Source: Candidatus Pampinifervens sinense
GTDB taxonomy: Bacteria > Aquificota > Aquificia > Aquificales > Aquificaceae
Assembly: GCA_037927135.1 (NCBI GenBank)
Contig: JAXSPP010000001.1
Location: 224,001-288,000 of the forward strand
DNA length: 64,000 nt
Direction of reading: 5' to 3'
In this document: piece by piece, positions 3,529 to 64,000 of the stretch
Position numbering within the stretch: the stretch's first letter is position 1
Layout: every line of letters starts with the position of its first letter
Translations under genes and position numbers: made by a program
Notes under the pieces: model-generated
Databases searched by the model: none
What the model was told of the DNA's origin: nothing
The model's input: only the letters and a program-made list of their open reading frames with translations

Positions 3529-4609
3529 AAAGCTCCTCATACTTATCCACAGTCCTTTCTATGGAATATTGCTGTGCCGTCTCTATGGCTCTCTTTGAAA
3601 GTCTTTCCCTTTCCTCCTCCGAAAGGTCAAGGGCCCTTTTTAACCTATCCACAAAGCCCTCAAGGTCTCCCACATCTACCGCAAAGCCATTTTCTCCATC
3701 CTTCAAGTAATCCCTTATACCACCCGCAAGAGTGGATATGACCACCTTACCGCAAGCCATAGCTTGAAGTAGGGCTCCAGCAATACCCTCAAAGTAGGAG
3801 GAAAAGACAAAGTAATCCGCCATGTTGAGGAGTTCTGGCACATCCTCTCTAAAGCCAAGGCCTATAAGCCTTTCACCAAGGCCGTACCTTTGGGCATACT
3901 TGGGCGCTTCTTTGTCTGTATTTATGCCTACCAGAAGGAGAAGGCACTGCGGGCAGTTTAGCCTACGAAAGGCTTCTATAAGAAAAGGCTGGCCCTTATG
4001 TTGTGGGTTCCAGTTAGCCACGTTTATAAAGACCTTTTTGTTTGGGTCTATACCAAGCTCCCTTCTCTTTGCCAAAGCCATCTCCTTACCCATAGGCTTG
4101 AACCTACTAAGGTCAAGACCGCTTGGTATATAAACCAGCTTCTCTGGAAAAAAGCCATCTTCTTTTAACCTTTCAAAGGTTGCCCTATCAACCACCACTA
4201 TCCTATCCGCAAAAGAATACTTGAAAAGCTTGGAAAAAAAGTTGGACCCTCTTCCAGTCCTTTTGTAGGCCACAAGCTTTGGCTTAGTTTTAAGAAAACT
4301 CATGGCAGTCCTTACAAAATCAAGGGCATGTGGAGAATTGGCTATCACTATGTCAAAGTTCTCCTCTCTCATTATCTTCCAAAGCCTGTAGTAGTTAAAA
4401 GGGTGAAACCTTGAGAGTTTATTATGGTTCTCAAAAAAATGAAGCTTTACATCATAACCCTTTAACTTGCTTACCATAAGGTCATACTGGAAGGAGAGGG
4501 CCATATGAACCCTAAAGCCCCTTTTGGATAGCTCCCTTGTTATGAGGTAGGTCTGCTCCTTTGTGCCGCCCCAACCTACACCGTCCACCACTTGCAGTAG
4601 CTTAACCAT
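3503..4609 (-). CDS. Glycosyltransferase family 4 (GT-B)
   Basis: GFREDV, FVFSSYFEGIAGALLQAMACG motifs; likely start MVKLL at 4609, overlapping the terC stop. Confidence 0.88.
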   Translation of the reverse strand: MVKLLQVVDGVGWGGTKEQTYLITRELSKRGFRVHMALSFQYDLMVSKLKGYDVKLHFFENHNKLSRFHPFNYYRLWKIMREENFDIVIANSPHALDFVRTAMSFLKTKPKLVAYKRTGRGSNFFSKLFKYSFADRIVVVDRATFERLKEDGFFPEKLVYIPSGLDLSRFKPMGKEMALAKRRELGIDPNKKVFINVANWNPQHKGQPFLIEAFRRLNCPQCLLLLVGINTDKEAPKYAQRYGLGERLIGLGFREDVPELLNMADYFVFSSYFEGIAGALLQAMACGKVVISTLAGGIRDYLKDGENGFAVDVGDLEGFVDRLKRALDLSEEERERLSKRAIETAQQYSIERTVDKYEELFKDLLGIS

Positions 4610-5513
4610 CCACCTTCTTTTTGACCACCAAAGAGGCCACTGCGGATACAAAGATGGCACTACCAATCAAAAGTAAGGAGACCTCTGCGGGTATCTTATA
4701 AAAGTCTGAGAGGATCATCTTTACACCGATAAATCCAAGGATAAAGGAAAGGCCGTAGTGTAGGTAGTGGAAAAGGGGCAGAATGCCTGCGGCGGCAAAG
4801 TAAAGGGATCTGAGGCCCAGTATGGCAAAGATGTTGGAAGTGTATACCACAAAGGGGTCTCTTGATATGGCTAATATGGCGGGCACCGAATCTATGGCAA
4901 ACATAATATCTGAACTTTCTACAAAGAGAAGGGCAAGGAACAATGGAGTGGCATAAATCTTTTTGCCTTCCCTTATGAAAAACTTACCATCTGCGCTGTT
5001 AGGCCTTAGAGGAATGACCCTCTTGGCTATCCTATAAACAAGGGTTTCCTCCGGGTGAAACTCCTTCTCCTCCGTGGTCAAAAGCTTTATAGCTGATATG
5101 ATAAGTATTATTCCAAAGACGTAGACCATCCAATGAAAGTGTTTTATCAGCTCAAGACCTGTAAAGATGAAGATGGCTCTAAAGACTATGGCACCCAAAA
5201 CGCCCCAAAAGAGGACCTTATGCCTATATTCTTCCGGTATCTTAAAATAGGAGAAGATAAGTATAAAGACAAAGATGTTGTCAAGGCTCAAAGACTTTTC
5301 AAGGAGGTAGCCAGTAAGGTATTCTACCGTTCTGTCATAGCCCCTTGTATAATACACAAAACCTGCAAAGGCAAGCCCAATGGCTATCCAAAAGGCGGAA
5401 AGCCATAGAGACTCCTTTATGGATATCTTGTGAGGATGTCTATGAAAGACAAAAAGGTCCAAAAAGAGGGCGACAAGCACCACAGTTCCAAAGACAAGCC
5501 AGCTTAGCTCCAT
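4602..5513 (-). CDS. TerC/Alx family membrane protein
   Basis: YLLEKSLSLDNIFVF, DIMFAIDSVPA, SNIFAILGLRSLYF motifs. Confidence 0.92.
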   Translation of the reverse strand: MELSWLVFGTVVLVALFLDLFVFHRHPHKISIKESLWLSAFWIAIGLAFAGFVYYTRGYDRTVEYLTGYLLEKSLSLDNIFVFILIFSYFKIPEEYRHKVLFWGVLGAIVFRAIFIFTGLELIKHFHWMVYVFGIILIISAIKLLTTEEKEFHPEETLVYRIAKRVIPLRPNSADGKFFIREGKKIYATPLFLALLFVESSDIMFAIDSVPAILAISRDPFVVYTSNIFAILGLRSLYFAAAGILPLFHYLHYGLSFILGFIGVKMILSDFYKIPAEVSLLLIGSAIFVSAVASLVVKKKVDG

Positions 5514-9490: not shown

Positions 9491-9681
9491 TGGAGCTAAG
9501 ATTTAAGGATTTTTATAGAAAGCTTACACCTTTTAAGGATGAGAGTATGGAACAGCTCCTTGAGGAGCAGGTAAACCAATGGATAAAACTGAATAAGCCT
9601 AAGATAGTCAGCGTGGAAACCCTTTGGGAAAGGAATTCGCATGTCTCGGTGGGGATAAGGATATGGTATATCCAGGAATAA
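9490..9681 (+). CDS. Small hypothetical protein (63 aa)
   Basis: TGATG coupling to grpE, GAGGA upstream, host-like codons. Confidence 0.65.
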   Translation: MELRFKDFYRKLTPFKDESMEQLLEEQVNQWIKLNKPKIVSVETLWERNSHVSVGIRIWYIQE

Positions 9682-10175
9682 GGAGAAGGGCATGCATATT
9701 TATTGATGGACCAAACTTTTATTTTATACAGAAGAACATACTCCATCAAAGGATTGACCTTGTAAAGCTTGTAAACTACTTCAAAGTGGAGTTTGACATA
9801 TACAACACCTTTTTTTATCTTGCCTACAGGGAAGGGGATGAAAAGCAGGAAGACTTTGTAAAGACCTTAATCTTTAGCGGTATAACCGTGGTGAAAAAAC
9901 CCATAAAACAGCTAAAGGATGGTACATATAAGGGTGATATTGATGTGGATCTAACTATAGATGCCCTCTTGACAAGGGATAACTACCATACGGCCATACT
10001 TTGCACAGGCGATGGGGACTTTGAAAGGCTTGTGTGGACCTTAAGGAACTTTGGCAAAGAAATAATATGCCTTTCTACAAAGGAGGCCACGGCCGTTGAG
10101 CTTGTAAACGCCTGCGACAGATACATAGACCTAAGGGACCTCCTACCTCTTGTAAAGCTGGAGGAAAGGGAATGA
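9663..10175 (+). CDS. NYN-domain (LabA/DUF88, PIN-like) protein
   Basis: IFIDGPN, DIDVDLTID, TGDGDF, ACDRYIDL; start chosen at ATG 9663. Confidence 0.88.
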   Translation: MVYPGIRRRACIFIDGPNFYFIQKNILHQRIDLVKLVNYFKVEFDIYNTFFYLAYREGDEKQEDFVKTLIFSGITVVKKPIKQLKDGTYKGDIDVDLTIDALLTRDNYHTAILCTGDGDFERLVWTLRNFGKEIICLSTKEATAVELVNACDRYIDLRDLLPLVKLEERE

Positions 10176-15388: not shown

Positions 15389-15730
15389 TTACTCTTCCTT
15401 TTCCTTTTCTTCCCTCTTGTAGCCTGGCTGGTAGTGGGATATGGCCTCTTTGGTAAAGGTTATCCTCGTGTTGGCATCCACTTTGAGAGTGACAGTCTCA
15501 TCCCCTATCTCTACCACCGTGCCCCATATGCCACCGCTGGTGACCACCCTGTCTCCCTTCTTTAAGTTCTTCAAAAACTCCTGATGCCTTTTCCTCACCT
15601 TCACCTGTGGCCTTATAAGCAAGAAGTAAAACAGGACAAAGAGTAGGATGAGGAAGATAAACTGAAAAAGTAGGGCTTCTACAGCATTTGAACCATGTCC
15701 TGTCTGCTGTGCAAAGGCTATGTCTATCAT
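15389..15730 (-). CDS. yajC: Preprotein translocase subunit YajC
   Basis: FYFLLIRPQ, LKKGDRVVTSGGIWG. Confidence 0.95.
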   Translation of the reverse strand: MIDIAFAQQTGHGSNAVEALLFQFIFLILLFVLFYFLLIRPQVKVRKRHQEFLKNLKKGDRVVTSGGIWGTVVEIGDETVTLKVDANTRITFTKEAISHYQPGYKREEKEKEE

Positions 15731-15787
15731 GGTGTTTAATTATAACATTAACCCACGTAGAAGTAGAATGCTAAATAAAATACTAAT

Positions 15788-18700
15788 ATGGGGATGGAAA
15801 TAAAAAAGGGAAGTGTCCTTAGGGGGCCTTTTTGGTCTGAGCCTGTAGAGGTTATTTATACGGAGGACCAAGGTAATTATGTGTTAATTATCACAAAAGG
15901 TAAGAATACGGGCGGAATTGATAACAGATTAATTCCTAAGGATGAATTGCCTAAGGTGGAAGTTATAGGTGGTGAATTAAGCTTTTCTGAAGAGACGTGG
16001 AAGGTATTTCTTGCCCTTGAAACCATACGGTATAGGTATGCCTCTGTGTATGACCCTCTGTTGGCTGTAAATGTATCAAAGATTGACCCACTTCCACACC
16101 AAATAGAGGCTGTGTATGGTTATGTTCTTAAACTTCCAAGGATAAGGTTTATGATAGCGGATGACCCTGGTGCTGGGAAGACCATTATGGCCGGCTTAAT
16201 CATAAAGGAGCTAAAGCTTCGCCATCTTATAAAGAGAATTTTGATTGTGGTGCCCGGACATCTCAGAGATCAGTGGCAGAGGGAGCTTTCTGAAAAATTT
16301 GACGAGCATTTTGAGATAGTGGATAGAGGGAGGTTTAATTCCAACTTTGGTATAAACCCCTGGCAAAAGTATTCTCAAATCATCACTTCCATGGACTTTG
16401 CCAAAAAGAAAGAAGTGCTTGAATCTTTGGAAGATGCTGATTTTGACCTTGTTATAGTGGATGAGGCTCACAAGATGAGCGCTTATAGGTATGGCAATAA
16501 AACGGAAAAGACTGACAGATATAAGCTTGGAGAAGTGCTTTCCAAAATAAGCAACCACCTGCTTTTCCTTACAGCCACGCCACACAAGGGAGACCCGGAG
16601 AATTTCAGATTACTTCTTGACCTGCTTGAACGGGGCTTTTTTGCAAACGAGGAGATTATGAGGGAGGCAATACAGAGTGGAAACAATCCTTTGTTTATAA
16701 GAAGGTTAAAGGAGGACCTAAAGGATTTTGAGGGTAGGCCCTTGTTCCTACCAAGGCGTGTTAATACAGTTCCTTTAGAACTTAGCGATAGGGAGATGGA
16801 GCTTTATAATGAGCTTTCAAGGTATGTAAAAAGCCAGTATGATAAGGCTATAAAAAGAGACAGAAGGAGGAATGTGGCCTTTGCCCTTGTTATTTTGCAA
16901 AGAAGGTTCTCTTCCAGTGTTTATGCTTTGCTTGAGTCTTTGAAAAGAAGGAAAAAAAGACTTGAAGAGCTTAAAAGCAGTGCATACCAACAAAGAGAGC
17001 CTGAAGAGGTCATTAACTTTGAAGAAGTGGAGGATATGTCCGAGAGTGAGAGGTGGGCCGAAGAGATCAAATGGGAAACCATAACCCTTTCTGAAAATAT
17101 GAAGGAGTTGGAGGAAGAGATAAGGACGGTGGACGAGCTTATAAGGAGGGCCGAGGATATATTAAGGAATGAAGAAGAGACAAAGCTTAAGGAGCTTAAA
17201 GAGACGCTTCTTGGACTTAAAGAGGAGTTTAAAGATTTCAAAATTATCATATTTACAGAGTCAAAGGATACGCTTGAATACTTGAATGAAAAGGTAAAAA
17301 GCTGGGGTTTTTCAACGGTTATCATCCATGGGGGTATGAATCTATACGAAAGGATAGACGCGGAGAAAAGGTTTAAGAATGAGGCAGAGGTTTTGATAGC
17401 TACAGAGGCGGCTGGAGAGGGTATAAATCTTCAGTTTTGCAATCTTATGATTAACTATGACCTACCATGGAATCCAAACAGGCTTGAGCAAAGGATGGGA
17501 AGGATACATCGCTACGGACAGCAAAGGGAGGTGCATATATACAATCTTGTGGCAAGAAGAACCAGGGAAGGAAAAGTTCTTTACAATCTCCTTGAAAAGC
17601 TTAATAAGATAAGGGAAGCACTTGGTAGTGATAAGGTTTTTGATGTGATAGGGGAGATTTTGCTTAATAAAAACCTTTCACAGCTTTTGGTGGAGGCTGC
17701 TGTGAACGCAAGGGATATGGATGAGATTCTGAAGGAGATTGATATAAAGGTTGATGAGGAGTATATAAACAGAATAAAGGAGAGCTTGGGGGAGGCTCTT
17801 GCCACAAGACATATTGACTTGACAAGGATAAGGGAGCTGGCACAAAAGGCCAAGGAAGAGCGCCTAATTCCAGAATATACGGAAAACTACTTTAAGAAGG
17901 CTTTTGAGAAGGCTGGTGGAAAGATAAGGGAACGCAAGGATGGTTTTTTGAGTGTGGAAAGCATTCCACTGGATATAAGACGGGTTGCCGAGGAGGAGGA
18001 ATTTAAAAGGAGCTTTGGACAGCTTCAGAGCAAATATCCTAAGATCACCTTTGATAAGGAGAAGGCCTTTAGAACGCCCGATGCGGAGTTTGTATCCTTT
18101 GGGCATCCACTTTTTGAAGCTGTTATGAGGTGGGTAGAAAAGCATTTAAGGGATAGTCTTTTGAAGGGTGCGGTATTTTTTGACCCAGATGGGAGGCTGG
18201 ACGGTTATATGCTTTTTTATGAGGGTGAGGTGAGGGACGGAACGGGGTCCATAGTAGGCAAAAGGCTTTTTGCTTTTTATGATGATGGAAGGAAGGTGGT
18301 GGAAGTTTCTCCTGCTATCTTGTGGGACCTGGCGGAAGGTTTTACTACAGAAAAGGAAGCTGTGAATATGGAGGAGTTAAGGAAAAGGGTGGAAGATGTT
18401 GTTATTAAAGGGCTTGAAAGATATAAGGAGGAGCTTTTAAAGGAAAGGCTAAGGCAGGTGGAGATAAAAGAAAGGTATGGTGTTAAATCCTTGGAATATT
18501 TGATCTATCAATTGGATGGGGAGATTTTGGACCTTTATGGAAAAAAGGATAAGGGCGAGGATGTGGATAAGATGATAAACAGAAAAAGGGAGAAAAAGCA
18601 CGAGTATGAAAGGGGTTTGGAGGAGCTAAAAGAAAGATTGGAAAGGGAAAAGGCCCTGTCTCTTTCTCCACCAAACTTTTTGGGAGTCATAAGGATAAAG

Positions 18701-19114
18701 CCTATGAGGGAAAGGATTGGTGTGGAAGGTGATCCGGAAGTGGAAGCCGTAGGTATGAAGGTGGCTATGGAGTATGAGATAAGGGAAGGTAGAAGACCGG
18801 AGGATGTTTCTTCTCAAAACCTTGGCTTTGATATAAGGTCTGTGGATAGGGATGGAAGGGTGAGGTATATTGAAGTGAAGGCAAGGGCTGGTGTGGGAGA
18901 GGTGGCTTTAACTCAAAACGAGTGGTTTAAGGCCCAAAGGCTGAAGGATGATTACTACCTTTATGTGGTCTTTAATGCAGTAAGTTCTCCACGGCTTATC
19001 ATAATCCAAAACCCCGCAGAGAGGTTAAAACCCCAAGAGAAGGTGGAGGTGGTAAGATATATTGTGGATGAGAGGGAAATTTTGAAGTATGTGGGAGGAA
19101 AGGATGAGCCATAG
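15788..19114 (+). CDS. SNF2/SWI2 (RapA-like) helicase with C-terminal DUF3883 PD-(D/E)xK-type nuclease
   Basis: [53 protein letters not shown]-terminal [13 protein letters not shown]...RYIEVK. Confidence 0.9.
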
Positions 19115-20705
19115 GCGCTTTATAGAGGAGTCTTTTCCTGTAAAGGAGGTCGGTCAAGAGTCCGCAAGGGAGAAAAACATACGCCATGGACATATTTCTA
19201 CCCTTCATATTTGGTGGGCAAGGAGGCCCTTGGCAGCTTCCAGAGCCACCATATACGCAAGCCTTATACCCGCACCAAAGGATGAGCTGGAACGCAACAA
19301 CCGGCTTGCCTTTATTATAGACCTTTGTAAGTGGGAGAATTCTTTAAACAGGACCATTATAGAGAAGGCGAGGAGGGATATTCTTGCCTCTAATGGAGGA
19401 AGGCCCCCGAGAGTTCTGGACCCCTTTGGAGGAGGTGGTTCCATACCCCTTGAAGCCTTGCGCCTTGGCTGTGAAGTCTATTCGGGTGATTATAATCCTG
19501 TGGCCGTTTTGATACAAAAATGCACCCTTGAATACCCTCAAAAGTATGGAAAGCCGGGAGAGGTAGAGATAGAGGTGGAAGAGTTTGGTAAGAAGGTAAG
19601 GAGAAAGGTAAGGGTTGAGAATGTGCTATTGGAGGATGTAAAAAGATGGGGGGAGTGGGTTTTGGAGCTTGCAAAAGAGGAAATAGGTAGGTTCTATCCG
19701 GCAGAGGAGGATGGTTCTATACCGGTTGGATACCTTTGGGCAAGGACTATACCCTGCCAAAACCCTAACTGTGGAGCGGAAATTCCTTTGATGAGACAAT
19801 ACTGGCTGGCAAAGAAGGATAAGAAGAAAGTAGCCCTATACCCCTATAAGGAGGGCAATAAGGTGCTTTTTAAAATAGTGGGAGATGGATATGAGCCTAT
19901 GCCAAAGGATTTTGACCCAGAGGAAGGCACCATTTCAAGGGCTGTGGCGGTATGTCCTGTGTGTGGTTCTGCTATTGATGACAAAGATGTGAGAAAGCTA
20001 TTTCAAGAGGGAAAGGCGGGTCAAAGGATGGTGGCAGTGGTTTTGCATCATCCAAACAAAGAAGGAAAAAGCTACAGGCTGGCAACGGAGAAAGACTTGG
20101 ATGTTTTTAAAGAGGCAGAAAAATACCTTGAGGAGAAAAGGAAAAAGCTTATGGAAGAATGGGGAATAGACCCTGTGCCGGATGAACCGTTGCCGCCAAA
20201 GGAGACTCTTGGTTTCCGTGTTCAAAGATACGGTATGCTCAAATGGGGCGACCTTTTTAATTCTCGCCAAAAATTGGCTTTGATTACCTTTACGGAAAAG
20301 GTAAGGCTGGCTTACAAAAGAATGGTTGAAGAAGGCTATGATGAAGAATATGCAAAGGCAGTGGTGAGTTATTTGGCGTTGGGAGTGGATAGGTTGGCGG
20401 ACTATAACTCAATTCTGTGTGTTTGGGCTGTGGCAGGAGAATTTGTGGCACACACTTTTGGGCGACAGGCTCTTCCTATGATATGGGACTATTTTGAGCT
20501 TTGTCCTTGGAGTGGATCAACAGGAGACTGGAACTCAGCTATGGATTGGATTTTGAGAGTTTTAGAACACACTTCTCGCATCAATTCAATCACCCACTTT
20601 TCCACCCCACCTTTACCCAATGAAGAAGATGAGGAAGAAGATAAATCAAAGAACTTGATAAAAGCAGGTGGTCTATATATGAAACTAATAGAGGAAGGGC
20701 TATGA
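19104..20705 (+). CDS. DUF1156 adenine DNA methyltransferase, N-terminal part (SAM-binding motif I, Zn-ribbon, probable target recognition)
   Basis: [39 protein letters not shown]...[21 protein letters not shown] at 19094-19098 before ATG 19104. Confidence 0.9.
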
Positions 20706-20755
20706 AAAGCTTACACATTCCAGTCATCACCCAATTCTCCGCCACCTCTCTACCC
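20589..20755 (+). repeat. Degenerate 30-bp direct repeat pair (20589-20618, 20726-20755) bracketing the MTase split
   Basis: atcacccacttttccaccccacctttaccc vs atcacccaattctccgccacctctctaccc, 23/30 identical, 137 nt apart. Confidence 0.7.
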
Positions 20756-21931
20756 TATCCAGACAACTACTTTGATGCAGTCATTACAGACCCACCTTAT
20801 TATGATAATGTGAATTATGCAGAGCTTTCTGACTTCTTTTATGTATGGCTAAAAAGAAGTATTGGAGATTTATATCCTGAACTATTTTCCACTCCACTCA
20901 CTCCAAAATCTCAAGAGATTGTAGCAAATCCTATTAGACATGAAAGACAAGATAGAGCAAAAAAATTCTTTGAAGATATGCTTAAAAAAGCCTTTCAAGA
21001 GATACACCGAGTTTTAAAGCCCTATGGCATTGCGGTAATTGTATATGCCCATAAATCTACGGAGGGATGGGAAACGCTTATAAACTCTCTTTTGGATTCT
21101 GGCTTGGTTATAACGGGCGCATGGCCCATAAATACGGAGATGCAGGCAAGGTTAAATGCTAAGGAGACGGCTTCTCTTTCATCATCCATCTACATAGTTG
21201 CCAGAAAGATGGAGCGCGAGCCTATTGGTATGTATAATGAGGTTAAGCATCAATTGAAAGAGCATTTGAATAGAAGGCTTGAAAGGTTATGGCAGGAGGG
21301 GATAGGTGGGGCTGACTTTTTTATATCGGCCATTGGTTCCGCCATAGAGGTCTTTGGAAAGTATGAAAAGGTTATGGACTATGAGGGCAAGCTTATACGG
21401 GCGGATAGGCTGTTGGAAGATGTGAGGAAGATAGTCACAGACTTTGTCATAAGGCAAATACTCCACAATGGTTTTTCTGGGGAGATCTCCGAGCTTACCA
21501 TGTTTTATGTGCTATACAGGTGGAACTACGGTGAGGCAAAGGTGCCTTTTGATGAGGCAAGAAAGCTTGCCACCAGTTGTGGTATAGACCTTGCCACCCA
21601 TTGGAACAAAAATAGCTTTATAAAAAAGGAGAAGGAATTTATAAAGGTGCTGGGGCCACAGGACAGGAAGATGGAAGAGCTTGAGGGTTCTACGGAGCTT
21701 GTTGATGTTTTGCATCTTGTCCTTTTGTTGTGGGAGAAGGGAAGAAGGGACGAGATGATCAGGGTGCTAAGGGAGACGGGCTTTGGAGATAGGGAGGTTT
21801 TTTACAGGGTGGCCCAAGCCATATCTGAAACATTACCGCAGGAGAGTAAAGAGAAAAAGCTTCTTGACGGCTTTTTGGTTGGAAGAGAAAGATTAAAAGA
21901 AGAGATTAGAAAGCAAGGGAGGTTGTTCTGA
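20702..21931 (+). CDS. DUF1156 methyltransferase, C-terminal catalytic part
   Basis: [51 protein letters not shown] overlap with the upstream ORF. Confidence 0.9.
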
Positions 21932-24486
21932 TGAGGCCCTTTCATACCATAGCCATACCACACAAAGACATCCTTGAAGGAAGGCTTGAGCAGGATGTTT
22001 TTGCTGCAGACCTATACGAGGTAAGTCAAGGTAGGGGCCCAGAAGAGTATAAGGACCCAGACATCTTTTTCCAAAGGACCTACCTTACGGAGGGACTAAG
22101 GAACCTTTTGAGCATGGTGGAGAGAAGATTAAAAGGCGAAGGCGGGGACCATATTATTCAGATTCAAACACCCTTTGGAGGTGGAAAAACCCACAGCCTT
22201 ATAGCCCTCTATCACAAGGCAAGGGAATGGAAAGCCAAGCCTGTGGTAATAGTAGGAACTGTTTTGGGACCGCGGGATACTCTGTGGGGAGCCTTGGAAA
22301 GGGGACTAACGGGTCAAAACACAAGGCTTACTGGCTATACTTCACCGGGTAGAGAGGCCATAAGGGAACTTCTCTTAAGCCATGAGCCTGTGCTTATTCT
22401 TATGGATGAAGTGCTTGAGTATGCGGTAAAGGCTGCCGGTCAAAGGGTGGGTGATAGCACCCTTTACGCCCAAAGCCTTGCCTTTATGCAGGAGCTTACA
22501 GAAGCGGTAAAAACCTTGGATAAAGTTTGTCTTGTGATAACTCTTCCATCCAGCCTTTTGGAACACTACGATGAGAACGCAGAAAGGTTTTATAATCAAC
22601 TTCAGAAGGTAATAGGAAGGGTAGAAAAGGTATATACACCAGTGCAAGAAGGAGAAATAGCCAAGGTTATAAAAAGGAGGCTTTTTAGCCATATTGACGA
22701 AGAGGAAGCTAAGAAGATAGTTCAGATGTTTGTGGATTATGCCCAAAAGGAAAATATACTTCCCGCGGGTATGGAGCCAAGCGAATACAGAGACAAATTT
22801 CTTGATTCCTATCCTTTTATGCCAGAGGTTTTGGATGTTCTATATCATCGTTGGGGGAGCATTCATACCTTTCAAAGAACGAGGGGTGTCTTAAGGCTTT
22901 TGTCCTTGGTCGTATATTCTTTAAAAGACAAAAACATACCCTATATCAGCCTTGCGGATTTTGACCTTTCAAACCAAGAGCTACGCCAAGAGCTTATAAA
23001 ACACATAGGAAATGAGTATAACAGCATATTGGACCAAGATATTACTGGCCATTCTGCTGGTGCCAAAAGGGTGGATAGGTCCTTGGGGAATGCCTATCAA
23101 GGTTTGAAGCTTGGAACAAGGTCTGCAAGGGTTATATTCCTTTATTCCTTTTCCAGTGGTCAGTCAAAGGGTGCTACCTTGGGAGAGATAAAAAGGTCTG
23201 CCACCACAATGAACAACCCAGCCAGCGCCGTGGTAGAAGCGGTAGAACAGCTAAAAAATAACCTCTTCTATTTACAAGCTACGGAGGATAGATACTTCTT
23301 TTCCAACATTCCTAACCTAAACAGAATATTGCTTACCAAAATGGAGAATGTAAAGGATGAGGATATAGAAAAGCTGGAAAGCGAACTGCTAAGAGGTAGA
23401 TTAAAGGGAGAAAAGCTAAAGGTATATATTTGGGTGGAGAACTCTGTCAATATTCCGGATACAGAAGACCTAAAGCTTGTAGTTTTGAGGAAAGATGATA
23501 GAAGTTTGATTGACAGTATATTAAAGAACAAGGGGTCCTCTCCGCGCATAAACAGGAATACTCTGTTCTTCCTTGTGCCTATGGAGGGGGAGAGAAATAA
23601 CTTTGAGAGAGAGGCAAGAAAAAGGATAGCTTATCAATCTATTGAAAAGGACAAGAGCCTAAACCTAAGGGAAGAACAGAAAAAGGATTTAAAGGACAAA
23701 CTAAGTAAAACGGAGGAAGTTCTTAAGGAGCTTATAAGGAAGTTATACAGGATGGTCCTTATACCCTCTAAGGATGGGGTCAAAGAGCTGGACCTTGGAG
23801 TGCCAACTTATGGGGACTCAAGGGGTATTGATGAGGAGATATATGATGCGCTAAAGACGGAAAATGAAATCATTGAAAGGCTTGACCCTTTGGTGATAAG
23901 GGAAAAGTATCTTAGGGATAATGATTTCCTTTATACGGGTAAGCTTTATGAGGCTTTCCTTAGGACGCCGGGAGAGCCAAGGCCTGTAGATAAAGAGGTT
24001 ATAGAAAGGTCCATATCTGAGGGAGTGGCCAAGGGGCTGTTTGGGCTTGGAGAGATGCTTGAGGATGGAAGGGTGGAATGCAGGTATTTTAAAGAGAGTG
24101 CGTCAGTCTATTTTTCTGAAAGAGAGGTTATTGTAAGGGCAGAGCTTTGTAAAAAGGAAGAGGAGGAAGGGGAGATAGGTTGTAGAATACCAGTAGGATC
24201 GCCGGATGTAAAAATAGATAATAAACCAGTAGAAACTATAAAACAGCCTGTAGGTAGTGCATTACTTGAAAAAAAAGCTATAAGTGGGCTTTCTTTGAGC
24301 TTTGTAATTCCAAGGGGTAAGTTGTCGGATGTGATGGGTGTGTTGAGGCTTTTAAGCGAGAGGTTTCAAAGGATTGAGTTTGAGCTTAGGGCGGTTGAGG
24401 GAGAAATATCTGAGAATGAGATAGAGGAAAGGATAAAAGAGGCCTTTAACCAGATGAAGATTGAGGTTAATATCACTCCACACTAA
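21931..24486 (+). CDS. DUF499 family AAA+ ATPase
   Basis: PHKDILEG..FAADL, FFQRTYLTEGL, Walker A TPFGGGKTHS, Walker B LILMDE, SYPFMP, FQRTRGVLRLL. Confidence 0.9.
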   Translation: MRPFHTIAIPHKDILEGRLEQDVFAADLYEVSQGRGPEEYKDPDIFFQRTYLTEGLRNLLSMVERRLKGEGGDHIIQIQTPFGGGKTHSLIALYHKAREWKAKPVVIVGTVLGPRDTLWGALERGLTGQNTRLTGYTSPGREAIRELLLSHEPVLILMDEVLEYAVKAAGQRVGDSTLYAQSLAFMQELTEAVKTLDKVCLVITLPSSLLEHYDENAERFYNQLQKVIGRVEKVYTPVQEGEIAKVIKRRLFSHIDEEEAKKIVQMFVDYAQKENILPAGMEPSEYRDKFLDSYPFMPEVLDVLYHRWGSIHTFQRTRGVLRLLSLVVYSLKDKNIPYISLADFDLSNQELRQELIKHIGNEYNSILDQDITGHSAGAKRVDRSLGNAYQGLKLGTRSARVIFLYSFSSGQSKGATLGEIKRSATTMNNPASAVVEAVEQLKNNLFYLQATEDRYFFSNIPNLNRILLTKMENVKDEDIEKLESELLRGRLKGEKLKVYIWVENSVNIPDTEDLKLVVLRKDDRSLIDSILKNKGSSPRINRNTLFFLVPMEGERNNFEREARKRIAYQSIEKDKSLNLREEQKKDLKDKLSKTEEVLKELIRKLYRMVLIPSKDGVKELDLGVPTYGDSRGIDEEIYDALKTENEIIERLDPLVIREKYLRDNDFLYTGKLYEAFLRTPGEPRPVDKEVIERSISEGVAKGLFGLGEMLEDGRVECRYFKESASVYFSEREVIVRAELCKKEEEEGEIGCRIPVGSPDVKIDNKPVETIKQPVGSALLEKKAISGLSLSFVIPRGKLSDVMGVLRLLSERFQRIEFELRAVEGEISENEIEERIKEAFNQMKIEVNITPH

Positions 24487-24961
24487 ACTTTACAGGCCTT
24501 CCCTCTTGGTCTCTTATCTCAAAAAGTAGGCCACAGCCTTCCCTATCTTCTCCCACCCTGCCTAAGGGCTGGCTTTTCTTTACCCACTCACCCCTTTTTA
24601 CCAATAGGCTACCAGCCTTTGCATAAACGTAGACAAATCTTTCATCGCTTTCTACCATAACCACCCAGCCGTAGTTTTTAATATCGTTTCCCGCATACAG
24701 AACTTTGCCCTCGCCCACGGACCTAAAATACTCTCCGCAGGCTGTGTTTATATAGTAGCCCCTATCTGTGGGCATAGCCTTTCCCTTTACTGGCAAAGGA
24801 ACCTTAAGGGCTTCCGCTGGTGGCTGATAGGTTCTCTGTGGAGCTTCCACCCTTCTTTGTGGCCTTTGCACCTCCCTTTTTGGCGTTTTGTCCCTTATCT
24901 CTATATGCACTATGCCACAGCCACTAAGGAATATAAGAGATAGGGCTATCAAAGGCTTCAT
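24473..24961 (-). CDS. M23-family (NlpD-like) lipoprotein, probably catalytically degenerate
   Basis: Lipobox LSGC; GKVLYAG...YGWVVMV...YVYA...VKRG...LLFEIR; HxxxD/HxH motifs absent. Confidence 0.75.
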
Positions 24962-62011: not shown

Positions 62012-63022
62012 GTGGCACTTTTGAAAGAGCTTTGGCTTTTTATTGCTTCATTCCTTCTCTCTTTTACAGCCTGCTATCTTTTCATAAGGTTTAACCCCTT
62101 TGGCAGTTGGGCCTATGACCCTACCTCCGGTGGCCCTCAGAAGTTTCACACCAAGCCTGTGCCAAGGGTGGGAGGCCTTGCCATATTTATAACACTTTTG
62201 TTCTTCTCCCTCTTCGAAGGTTCCTATTGGACCCTTGTCCTATGCACTCTTCCTGCCTTTTTGGGTGGCCTTTTGGAGGACCTTACCAAAAGGGTGGGAG
62301 TAAGAGAGCGCTTTTTCCTTACCATGCTTTCCGGCGCCCTTGGCTACTTTCTCCTTGATGCCTACATAAACCGTGTGGACCTTCCCATCTTTGACCACCT
62401 TTTGAGCCTCTCCCTTGCATCCTTTGCCTTTACAGTCTTTGCAGTAGGTGGAGTGGCCAACGCCATAAACATAATAGATGGCTACAACGGCCTTGCCAGC
62501 GGCGTATCCCTCCTTAGCCTCTTGGCCCTTGGCTATGTGTCTTATTTGGTGGGGGACTATCATCTTGCCAAGCTGTGCCTCCTTTTATGCTGTGCCATCT
62601 TAGGCTTTTTCCTTTGGAACTACCCTTCCGGAAGTATCTTTTTAGGCGACGGTGGAGCCTACCTCCTTGGCTTCCTGATAGCGGAAGTGAGCGTGCTTTT
62701 GGTTCAAAGGAACCCAGAGGTCTCCCCATGGTTCCCCTTGCTTGTGGTAGCCTACCCGGTGGTGGAAACACTTTTTTCTATTTATAGGAGAAAAATTCTA
62801 AGAGATATTAGCCCAGGAGAGCCAGATAGACTACATTTACACTCTCTCATATACAAAAGGCTGGTAAAGGTGGAAGACAAGCTTCTAAGAAACTCCATGA
62901 CCTCCCCCTACCTATGGACCCTAAGCCTCCTAAGCATAATTCCCGCCGTGATCTTTTGGAGGAATACTTTAACTTATAGCACTTTTCCTTTGCTTTGTGT
63001 GGGTTTATGTGGTTTTTTATAG
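62012..63022 (+). CDS. MraY/WecA-family undecaprenyl-phosphate glycosyl-1-P transferase (likely frameshifted near the C-terminus)
   Basis: PRVGGLA, NAINIIDGYNGLA, IFLGDGGAY, PDRLHLH. Confidence 0.88.
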   Translation: MALLKELWLFIASFLLSFTACYLFIRFNPFGSWAYDPTSGGPQKFHTKPVPRVGGLAIFITLLFFSLFEGSYWTLVLCTLPAFLGGLLEDLTKRVGVRERFFLTMLSGALGYFLLDAYINRVDLPIFDHLLSLSLASFAFTVFAVGGVANAINIIDGYNGLASGVSLLSLLALGYVSYLVGDYHLAKLCLLLCCAILGFFLWNYPSGSIFLGDGGAYLLGFLIAEVSVLLVQRNPEVSPWFPLLVVAYPVVETLFSIYRRKILRDISPGEPDRLHLHSLIYKRLVKVEDKLLRNSMTSPYLWTLSLLSIIPAVIFWRNTLTYSTFPLLCVGLCGFL

Positions 63023-63065
63023 AAGGTTGGTGAGGTTTGGGAGGGTATGAAGGAGGTAATTTTAT

Positions 63066-64000
63066 ATGAGTGCTGAGTCAAAAGTCTCTAAGAATTATCC
63101 TACAAAATTGATCCTTGCTCGGAACACAATTTTCAATTTTATTGGACAGGCTATTCCTCTTATAGCAGGTATAATAACTTTACCATTTATAATTAAAGGC
63201 TTAGGTACACAACGTTTTGGCCTTCTATCCTTAGCTCTGGTTATTTTAGGGTATTTTGCGGTATTTGATTTAGGACTGGGACGAGCTACAACCAAATTCG
63301 TAGCCGAGTCTGTTGGCAAAGGTGAAAAAGAAAAAATTTCTATAATAGTTTGGACTTCCGTTACTATTCAGTTTATCTTTGGCATGATAGGAACCTTTAT
63401 ATTTTTAGCTATAGTTCCTGTATTAGCTACAAAACTATTGAATATTCCCCCAGAGCTTCAAACAGAAGCAAAATCTACCTTCTATATGCTTGCTTTTACT
63501 TTACCTATTCTTTTAATTTCAAGCTCCTTTAGAGGAGTTTTAGAAGCTTTTCAGAGATTTGATCTTGTAAATATAATAACAATTCCATCCAATAGTATGA
63601 CTTTTATTTTGCCATTAATTGGCATTCACTTAGGATTAAGCCTACCATGGATAGTGGGATTAATTTTAGTTACACGTGTTATGACTTTGTTAACATATTT
63701 GTTTTTCTGTATTCATCTAGTGCCAAGCTTAAAACAATATTCCTATTCCATTGAACTTTTTAAACATCTTTTTTCTTTTGGTTTCTGGATAATGATATCA
63801 AATATAGTCGGTCCAATTTTAGTATACTTAGATAGATTCCTAATAGGTGTTTTTTCCTCTCTTTCTCAAGTTGCATACTATACAGCCCCTTATGAAGCTA
63901 TAACACGTATATGGATAATTCCTTTTAGTCTTGTTTCTACACTCTTTCCCACATTTAGCTCGTTGAGTGCTATAAAAGATATAGAGAAAATAAAATCTCT
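63066..64000 (+). CDS. wzx: Wzx-type polysaccharide flippase (partial, runs off the window; not in ORF track)
   Basis: AGGAGG then ATG 63066: MSAESK...ARNTIFNFIGQAIPLIAG...LG..RFGLLSL...FDLGLGRATTKFVA; later LDRFLIG...VAYY..PY; low GC. Confidence 0.85.
   Translation, partial: MSAESKVSKNYPTKLILARNTIFNFIGQAIPLIAGIITLPFIIKGLGTQRFGLLSLALVILGYFAVFDLGLGRATTKFVAESVGKGEKEKISIIVWTSVTIQFIFGMIGTFIFLAIVPVLATKLLNIPPELQTEAKSTFYMLAFTLPILLISSSFRGVLEAFQRFDLVNIITIPSNSMTFILPLIGIHLGLSLPWIVGLILVTRVMTLLTYLFFCIHLVPSLKQYSYSIELFKHLFSFGFWIMISNIVGPILVYLDRFLIGVFSSLSQVAYYTAPYEAITRIWIIPFSLVSTLFPTFSSLSAIKDIEKIKS

Follow-up and report, generated by a model that had tools for sequence, protein, structure and literature searches.

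A split hmaB methylase gene in the Hma operon of Candidatus Pampinifervens sinense and its break as a putative intragenic cargo site

Candidatus Pampinifervens sinense, a member of the Aquificaceae, carries a restriction-like defence operon whose DNA methylase, HmaB, is encoded by two overlapping open reading frames (ORFs) instead of one. This raises the question of whether the methylase gene has been broken by an insertion or is made as two chains that work together, and why the break lies where it does. Here we describe the locus, which is situated in a 64,000-nucleotide stretch of contig JAXSPP010000001.1 (assembly GCA_037927135.1, positions 224,001 to 288,000 of the forward strand), referred to below as the window. 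With a probability of about two in three, we read the operon as an Hma restriction-like system in which the methylase consists of two interlocked chains and the break between them is a cargo site that travels together with variable loops.

The four genes stand in series on the plus strand with overlaps of 11, 4 and 1 nt, and both neighbours, yajC to the left and an M23 peptidase gene to the right (Pfam matches), are on the minus strand. The Hma core trio of SNF2 helicase, DUF1156 methylase and DUF499 ATPase was found in this one operon by PADLOC and Pfam. The best PADLOC models were HmaA (E 3.8e-207), HmaB (E 6e-90 for the N-chain and 3.1e-54 for the C-chain) and HmaC (E 5.1e-137), and the HmaB profile (~970 positions, 973) was covered at 6-552 by the N-chain and at 571-849 by the C-chain. 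A preliminary description of this DNA had derived the operon from Gao_RL, a Type-2 bacteriophage exclusion (BREX)-related (BR) system, by loss of DUF3780 and replacement of the PLD nuclease by DUF3883. Gao_RL-type models do match, but far more weakly than those of Hma (PLD_Helicase 1e-31 against 4e-207, DUF1156_MTase 2e-23 against 6e-90, DUF499 4e-46 against 5e-137); the scores for NCBIfam NF042962/3/4 were well under cut-off, and the gene architecture has already been described as Type-1. This derivation was rejected and is almost certainly wrong. An N-terminal HKD/PLD nuclease on the helicase gave no PLD match in Pfam, the PLD_Helicase model aligning at aa 441-614 only, and for DUF3780 there was no match on the four operon proteins and no room or ORF between yajC and M23.

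An SNF2-DUF3883 helicase with DUF1156 and DUF499, and with neither DUF3780 nor PLD, is the system named Hma by Payne et al. (2021; PMC8565338). The same three-gene form is Type-1 BR, the commonest subtype of the DUF499-centred BREX-related systems, and the fusion of helicase and restriction endonuclease (REase) is present in 79% of 2446 taxa (PMC12839542). The SNF2-DUF3883 fusion was noted as early as 2013 (PMC3710099), HmaA is listed as a DUF3883 protein by Liu et al. (2024; PMC11232893), and in the same study a Halomonas HmaA was tested which alone blocks T4 via its NOV_C nickase. Judged by its sequence, the operon is the known anti-phage system Hma, or Type-1 BR. Since a DUF3883 nuclease is standard in Hma, the claim of a novel substitute nuclease fails, and with it that of an uncharacterised subtype, the gene set being one already described. 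The remainder of the preliminary description holds: a BREX-related helicase/methylase/ATPase module, four overlapping plus-strand ORFs amid minus-strand genes (with coordinates and overlaps reproduced), intact helicase, EVK nuclease, methylase I/IV and Walker A/B motifs (all located in the translations), and the lack of DUF3780 and PLD. By the PADLOC and Pfam check that it had proposed, the operon matches a characterised system; the two-chain methylase is the only novelty that survives. The PADLOC HmaB models imply a single polypeptide, whereas here there are two ORFs. The Hma papers examined do not define the system by a one-chain HmaB, and the locus is counted as an Hma variant.

The structural position of the break was examined on an AlphaFold2 model of the fused HmaB of a same-genus genome, G050 (49 sequences, pLDDT 87). 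In this model strand b1 occupies residues 103-106 and b2 124-129, the recognition insert extends up to helix 476-490, b3 lies at 499-502 and b4 with DPPY at 515-524. The break site corresponds to the linker between helix 476-490 and b3, so that a single predicted Rossmann core is divided between the chains. DPPY is invariant in a 91-row C-chain alignment, as are the motif I glycines in an 82-row N-chain alignment. Prediction of the N-chain together with the C-chain gave a score of 0.95 (best of 3 controls 0.00); the mark applied to such scores was reached by 116 of 157 solved pairs and 2 of 215 mismatched pairs. Agreement in contacts between runs was at least 92%, partner pLDDT was at least 77, and strands paired across the chains, b1 with b4 and b2 with b3. 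By this model, the chains would probably come together again as a single enzyme.

The split is real and recurrent. The window's junction is identical in two independent metagenome contigs (L151 and L206) and was spanned by contigs from all 3 DNA runs examined (X3, X6 and X12, from three studies), by which a sequencing or assembly error, or a one-off frameshift, was rejected as its cause. Among the best 80 genome loci, 62 were fused, 2 more were probably fused, 7 were split with both halves visible, 4 had other genes in front of a free C-chain start, and contig ends cut the remaining 5. Within the family, four genomes (G019, G076, G078, G080) carry split hmaB with both halves on a single contig, three (G069, G007, G081) show a free C-chain start, and two (G050, G072) have fused hmaB. 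Split carriers belong to the Aquificota, Campylobacterota, Planctomycetota, Ca. Aerophobetes, Ca. Calescibacterium and Deltaproteobacteria and include an Archaeoglobaceae archaeon; further named carriers are Campylobacteraceae, Gemmatales, Syntrophaceae, Bipolaricaulota, Aquifex and Thermocrinis. The break always falls at one site, after the target-recognition insert and before core strand b3, and the new start is conserved across phyla. A search with the pattern of the C-chain head gave 90 metagenome loci, 57 of them split with intervening DNA, 2 with the window-type junction and 31 without a visible N half; it found 0 fused loci but selects split forms, and so gives no split/fused frequency. 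The conservation of the first 21 C-chain codons in this set is partly circular, as the pattern demanded them. The same head begins 15 of 120 protein homologues among the matches listed. One apparent split locus, L085, was rejected as an assembly gap of Ns. In plasmids, the search for hma returned distant relatives only (214 records, each under 60% identity).

What lies between the halves was determined for the 68 loci in which both are visible and stand apart (62 of them distinct at 97% identity); two more, L083 and L099, were left out of the counts as having the same length and match positions as other loci. Cargo classes are BLAST clusters with Pfam labels on 38 representatives. The gap measures 83-4,789 bp (median 722) over all 68 loci. 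MNT and/or HEPN/HepT genes were present in 53 of them, antisense CCDC90-like coiled-coil arrays in 10, PIN/AbrB sets in 2, ParE/RHH in 1, and a cluster of DarT-macro, ABC-ATPase and AbrB in 1, while 1 had no ORF. At 55 of 107 loci a plus-strand ORF ends within -10 to +5 nt of the C-chain start.

Several of these cargoes are of interest in their own right. The CCDC90-like cargo consists of one to four tandem, near-identical antisense genes encoding a coiled coil and a C-terminal hydrophobic segment; its CCDC90-like and apolipoprotein Pfam matches are weak and under cut-off, and copy number and length vary by strain (L025:3803-5899, L029:1806-3719, L030:2415-2954 and, in metagenomes, L128, L140, L143, L149, L161, L172, L176, L188, L202 and L203). 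A conserved set of three genes, whose products of about 172, 165 and 161 aa have no Pfam match, lies within the split hmaB of two genomes (L026:6416-7931, L027:231-1708, L028:1220-2736); we take its middle protein, by eye, to be SecB-like, and the set is a candidate defence or toxin-antitoxin-chaperone module. Locus L026 also has, as hmaB cargo, a DarT joined to a macro (DarG-like) domain in a single 390-aa ORF (3597-4769), and a 112-aa gene of unknown type with a PIN gene between hmaA and hmaB (1355-2066), so that it holds intergenic plus intragenic cargo. A 156-aa hydrophobic ORF with no Pfam match occurs in the hmaB gap of L192 (454-924) and of L175.

The window itself retains the remains of such cargo. 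Pairwise alignment with the fused G050 allele shows a segment of about 123 nt that is absent from G050 and creates the split. Inside it lie, in another frame, the last six codons and stop of an MNT antitoxin gene, and an eight-codon mini-ORF which is now the N-chain end and contains the C-chain's purine-rich ribosome-binding site; from its position the mini-ORF is a probable collapsed HEPN gene. In locus L208 the C-chain start and ~45 upstream bases are as in the window, and before them comes an ORF of MNT type that stays open throughout the 300 bp visible. These shared bases mark the window as a cargo-deleted derivative with an N-chain reading through a stump of ~45 nt. The N-chains of two further loci, L171 and L152, end like that of the window, in a partial b3 copy followed by an acidic tail, which suggests repeated conversion from fused to split by crossover just past the break.

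The island as a whole is mobile. C-chain matches occurred in 15 of 90 family genomes, reduced to 13 after removal of two that were weak and unrelated, and N-chain matches in 14 of 178 phylum genomes. In the genus, yajC was matched in 21 genomes: in 17 of them M23 stands right beside it and the site is empty, in 2 (G000 and G050) it is occupied by hma, and the other 2 show neither arrangement. The operon is patchily distributed. Window and G050 are near-identical over a block that reaches into yajC and M23, and outside it their flanks are about 5-14% divergent, which indicates a recent exchange of the block, probably via recombination in the flanking genes. Within the block the differences are confined to 20307-21008, 21156-21175 and two single bases; the distal C-chain and the proximal N-chain of the window recur unchanged in G050, whose hmaB is one 900-aa gene. 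A fused hmaB in a near-identical island implies that split and fused forms interconvert by recombination, along with the putative specificity loops.

Wider comparison points the same way. Split rows do not form one clade on either hmaB flank. In the C-chain tree (100 rows) one branch of 44 rows contains 42 split ones, and the tree needs 7 split/fused label changes, at least 5 of them forced; the distal C-chain tree (77 rows, with 15 near-copy or long-branch rows and another 8 lacking the anchor motif removed) has 6 changes (approximately unbiased (AU) test, p 3.7e-10), and the proximal N-chain tree (84 rows) has 7. Gain is indistinguishable from loss in these trees, and a single split origin without later exchange was rejected by the changes needed on all three. 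Otherwise near-identical loci differ in dense, short variable patches on either side of the break (Table 1), several of which match lower-confidence model loops at or near the predicted chain interface. The first main region, VR1, has 34 classes among 89 loci; of the 15 multi-locus classes, 10 pair with more than one type of the second region, VR2, and 11 occur in split and fused genes alike. Their place in the recognition insert and beside DPPY makes a role of these patches in setting DNA specificity a putative one.

Exchange between the two forms could also be read as regulation, in which recombination acts as a switch and the split and fused alleles are its on/off or strong/weak states; as a variant, the split allele would lower methylation or put the catalytic chain under cargo control. 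Run X3 holds, on one backbone, both the window's allele and a second that lacks 125 nt across the junction and is taken from its length to be fused, at contig depths of 25.5 and 23.1 against 54-63 in the flanks (depths that give no share of cells), and antisense cargo, as in the CCDC90-like arrays, would break translational coupling. However, inspection by eye, without a repeat finder, revealed no simple-repeat tract or inverted arms at the junction, and split and fused alleles are hundreds of substitutions apart, which makes them old alleles rather than a reversible switch. We hold this explanation to be improbable.

Rejoining of the halves into an ordinary polypeptide by splicing, a split intein or programmed frameshifting is very unlikely. 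In the window, no stop interrupts the C-chain frame in the 19 codons before its ATG, and a shift there would yield a fusion; against this, the gaps of other loci contain whole genes on either strand, and the C-chain has a ribosome-binding site and ATG of its own. No Rfam intron family was detected in 16 loci scanned, and no Pfam intein family matched either HmaB chain.

Whether the split methylase is alive can be judged from selection and decay. Median dN/dS (nonsynonymous to synonymous substitution rates; intact ORFs only, pairs non-independent) was 0.12-0.13 for split C-chains (88 pairs) versus 0.15-0.19 for fused ones (20 pairs), and 0.15-0.34 for split N-chains (81 pairs) versus 0.28 for fused ones (21 pairs); by this measure both halves are under purifying selection. 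The competing explanation is a disabling insertion by selfish toxin-antitoxin modules, with split hmaB dead or decaying and the island acting through HmaA alone. MNT-HEPN modules are indeed abundant mobile units in thermophiles (PMC3710099). This explanation must account for one fixed break site with a conserved start across phyla, for the invariant DPPY and motif I glycines, for dN/dS that is low at dS up to 1.5, and for a cargo-less form in which, across 3 assemblies and 3 runs, both frames stay open and coupled. We regard it as unlikely, though less so than the switch.

Several points nevertheless weigh against a functional two-chain methylase. Among them, the excess of broken C-chains, the sufficiency of HmaA against T4 and the hmaA loci without hmaB also favour the dead-gene explanation. 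C-chain lesions (nonsense, frameshift or deletion) are more frequent in split loci, with 13 of 67 fully visible chains broken (about 8 distinct events by eye) versus 3 of 61 in fused genes; sampling was not the same for the two sets, and some lesions may be metagenome errors. The other genes of split loci were broken in 2 of 21 (hmaA), 4 of 49 (N-chain) and 5 of 40 cases (hmaC). HmaA alone protects from T4, HmaB overexpression left T4 infectivity unchanged, and about 15% of hmaA loci are without hmaB (all PMC11232893). Methylation by any HmaB is unreported in the available portions of the Hma papers examined, PMC11232893 included. The signal of purifying selection could also result from recombination with fused alleles. 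The alignments behind the two-chain model included halves of fused relatives, and chains that derive from one split gene usually score well in such tests, so that the prediction speaks for compatibility and not for binding. Finally, structural matches of the G050 model cover residues 9-661, the best being Trm11 (Z 18.1, root-mean-square deviation 2.9, 180 aligned); Foldseek returned no close solved relative (best query TM 0.11-0.12). As the closest solved folds are tRNA methylases, the DNA substrate of HmaB rests on context.

On balance we favour the two-chain Hma system with a cargo site in its methylase gene, which may work as follows. By comparison with G050, the island moved recently, as a block, into the gap between yajC and M23. 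HmaA would be a helicase-nickase effector, as shown for a homologue, HmaC an accessory ATPase, and HmaB a putative self-marking N6-adenine methylase, made as two translationally coupled chains. In the model, the N-chain would contribute b1-b2, with S-adenosylmethionine binding, and the recognition insert, and the C-chain b3-b7 with DPPY, to one Rossmann core. The break would be a tolerated surface linker that doubles as an intragenic cargo site, where relatives keep small toxin-antitoxin modules and where, by comparison, those of the window strain have been deleted to the stump. Homologous recombination would swap the middle of the gene, whose putative specificity loops flank the break, among alleles, and thereby carry the split, the cargo and loop combinations between backbones; the mosaic pattern comes from comparison of loci, and N6-adenine methylation, a change of specificity and a benefit from cargo are presumed. 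To a broader proposal we give even odds: that one lineage of Hma methylases, from hot-spring and other anaerobic or thermophilic prokaryotes, is a natural two-chain amino-methylase with an intragenic hotspot, in which toxin-antitoxin modules between putative specificity regions hitch-hike on new specificities and stabilise the cassette, and shared cargo offers room for crossovers that recombine the two regions.

Table 1. Features of the hma locus, in window positions or in residues of the translated proteins
Feature	Position	Strand	Remarks
hmaA	15788-19114	+	1108 aa; RapA-like SNF2 helicase, predicted N-terminal small beta-barrel, C-terminal NOV_C/DUF3883 PD-(D/E)xK nuclease
hmaB N-chain	19104-20705	+	533 aa; in-frame ATG at 19089 would add 5 aa
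hmaB C-chain	20702-21931	+	409 aa
hmaC	21931-24486	+	851 aa; DUF499 AAA+ ATPase without N-terminal HEPN
N-chain content			DUF1156 helices, Rossmann strands b1 (motif I) and b2, whole target-recognition insert with 4-Cys zinc finger
N-chain C-terminal ~35 aa			Duplicated-b3-like stretch, acidic run, read-through into cargo relic (junction alignment)
C-chain content			Rossmann strands b3-b7 with DPPY, C-terminal helical domains; own ATG coupled to N-chain stop
N-chain motifs	aa 106; C218, C223, C284, C287		Motif I DPFGGGG at aa 106; zinc-finger cysteines, invariant in alignment
C-chain motif IV	aa 30		DPPY
Segment absent from fused G050 allele	20595..20719	+	Creates the split
MNT antitoxin cargo remnant	20662..20682	+	Identical bases in L208
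Eight-codon mini-ORF	20679..20705	+	Overlaps MNT stop and C-chain start; same mini-ORF in L208
Variable patch 0	20186..20258	+	N-chain aa 361-385; 18 differences in L151, 32 in L206; also X6, X12
Variable region 1 (VR1)	20307..20600	+	N-chain aa 402-499, end of target-recognition insert; replaced in G050
Variable region 2 (VR2)	20804..20959	+	C-chain aa 35-43 (after DPPY) and aa 74-86; three main types
Variable patch 3	21156..21179	+	C-chain aa 152-160; low-confidence loop in G050 model
Block near-identical with same-genus G050	15688..24493		Extends into yajC and M23; no further gene inside
HmaA helicase motifs	aa 125, 225, 262, 568	+	DDPGAGKT, DEAH, TATP, QRMGRIHR (translation)
HmaA nuclease residues	D1015, E1029-V-K1031, E1045	+	Invariant in 52 aligned HmaA
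HmaC ATPase motifs	aa 83, aa 158	+	GGGKT, MDE (translation)
Sigma-70-like consensus match	15742..15769	+	Upstream of hmaA in 57-bp divergent gap; 9/12 matches

The partners of the methylase are as expected for the system. HmaA has the Pfam domains SNF2, Helicase_C and NOV_C (E 2.3e-24, aa 985-1073), and its residues form a complete predicted PD-(D/E)xK nuclease site. Its AlphaFold2 model (pLDDT 81) has four strands within aa 10-50, and the best full-length PDB match is RapA (E 4.5e-34); helicases of Type-1 BR are described as RapA-like with a Tudor domain at the N-terminus. DUF499 is the sole Pfam match of HmaC, an ATPase which in Type-1 BR is described with an RRM-fold domain at the C-terminus. 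The promoter match upstream of hmaA is weak, as 23 sigma-70-like sites were found versus 14.5 in shuffles, and in RNA run X15 the locus is represented by short low-depth pieces only. The GC content of the operon (0.42-0.46) is in line with that of the genome (0.43-0.45), and the genome itself yielded no second hma copy. Further out, the left flank holds what we take to be a lepA-like and an acyl-CoA-synthetase-like ORF and the right flank, presumably, an Nnr-like ORF, all on the minus strand. A stand-alone NYN-domain gene (Pfam E 1.6e-29) lies at 9624-10175, about 5.6 kb upstream of the island, and GC falls to 0.33, from about 0.45 elsewhere, at 63001-64000, a possible edge of another island. 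Among related loci, a decayed hma locus was seen in genome G028 (L022:6601-11081; hmaA truncated, hmaB N half missing, hmaC frameshifted), CRISPR repeats follow one split locus (L037:6492-6719), and a tRNA gene stands directly after hmaC in another (L026:12122-12194).

The operon itself is ordinary and its nuclease known; the novelty is the recurrent intragenic cargo site in hmaB. A split DUF1156/HmaB methylase or intragenic Hma cargo was not found described in what was mainly open literature, key supplements lying outside its scope, and PMC12707154 had nothing relevant; the main texts of PMC12839542 and the 2024 preprint (bioRxiv 10.1101/2024.01.29.577857) do not contain the word 'split', but the supplements of both may show such loci. 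The pipeline of that preprint, as far as its available text goes, kept only loci with every hma gene once and no pseudogenes, a filter by which split-hmaB loci would be excluded. If the broader proposal is true, an immune cassette is nested inside a single enzyme gene and is missed by pipelines that expect one gene per component. This would widen 'embedded defence genes' from intergenic to intragenic and expose loci now discarded as pseudogenes. Near-isogenic natural alleles on >99% identical backbones, split or fused, with or without cargo and with differing loop combinations, would make two questions testable, namely whether HmaB methylates DNA and which of the loops determine what it recognises. 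Split-enzyme tools, too, could start from a thermostable two-chain adenine methylase whose halves complement each other naturally.

In Type I and III restriction-modification (R-M) systems, target-recognition domains are swapped by recombination between conserved flanks. The HmaB alleles are alike in having mosaic variable segments between conserved flanks, but here there are several short patches on two chains, the swap can carry passenger genes, and a change of specificity is putative. Gao_RL, as presented by Gao in 2020, reportedly comprises a PLD-helicase, DUF1156, DUF499 and DUF3780. Compared with Gao_RL or Type-2 BR (PMC12839542 for Type-2), the methylase, ATPase and SNF2 core of the window are homologous, whereas the operon has a C-terminal REase and neither an HKD/PLD domain nor a DUF3780 gene.

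Natural two-chain C5-methylases exist, M.AquI and M.EcoHK31I (PMC3404938). They likewise form one DNA methylase from two polypeptides, an assembly that is modelled here; unlike these C5-cytosine enzymes, that of the window is a predicted DPPY amino-methylase, split between b2 with its target-recognition domain and b3, and its HmaB relatives have variable cargo between the halves and fused alleles still circulating. Hma-embedded defence genes have been described by Payne et al. (2024, the above preprint) and Liu et al. (2024). These genes, and the HEC systems, resemble our loci in that defence-type cargo, mostly co-oriented, is nested in Hma loci; the published cargo, as far as those texts are available, lies between hma genes, whereas here the site is inside hmaB and, unlike HEC systems, holds mostly small type II/VII toxin-antitoxin modules. 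With Hma or Type-1 BR at large, the locus shares gene set and order, the SNF2-NOV_C/DUF3883 helicase-nuclease with all four catalytic residues, the DUF1156 methylase with its recognition insert after strand 2 and 4-Cys finger, the DUF499 ATPase, patchy distribution and horizontal movement. It differs in that no cargo lies between its three core genes, in an HmaC that lacks the N-terminal HEPN and, above all, in an HmaB that is encoded as two chains with the break inside the Rossmann core.

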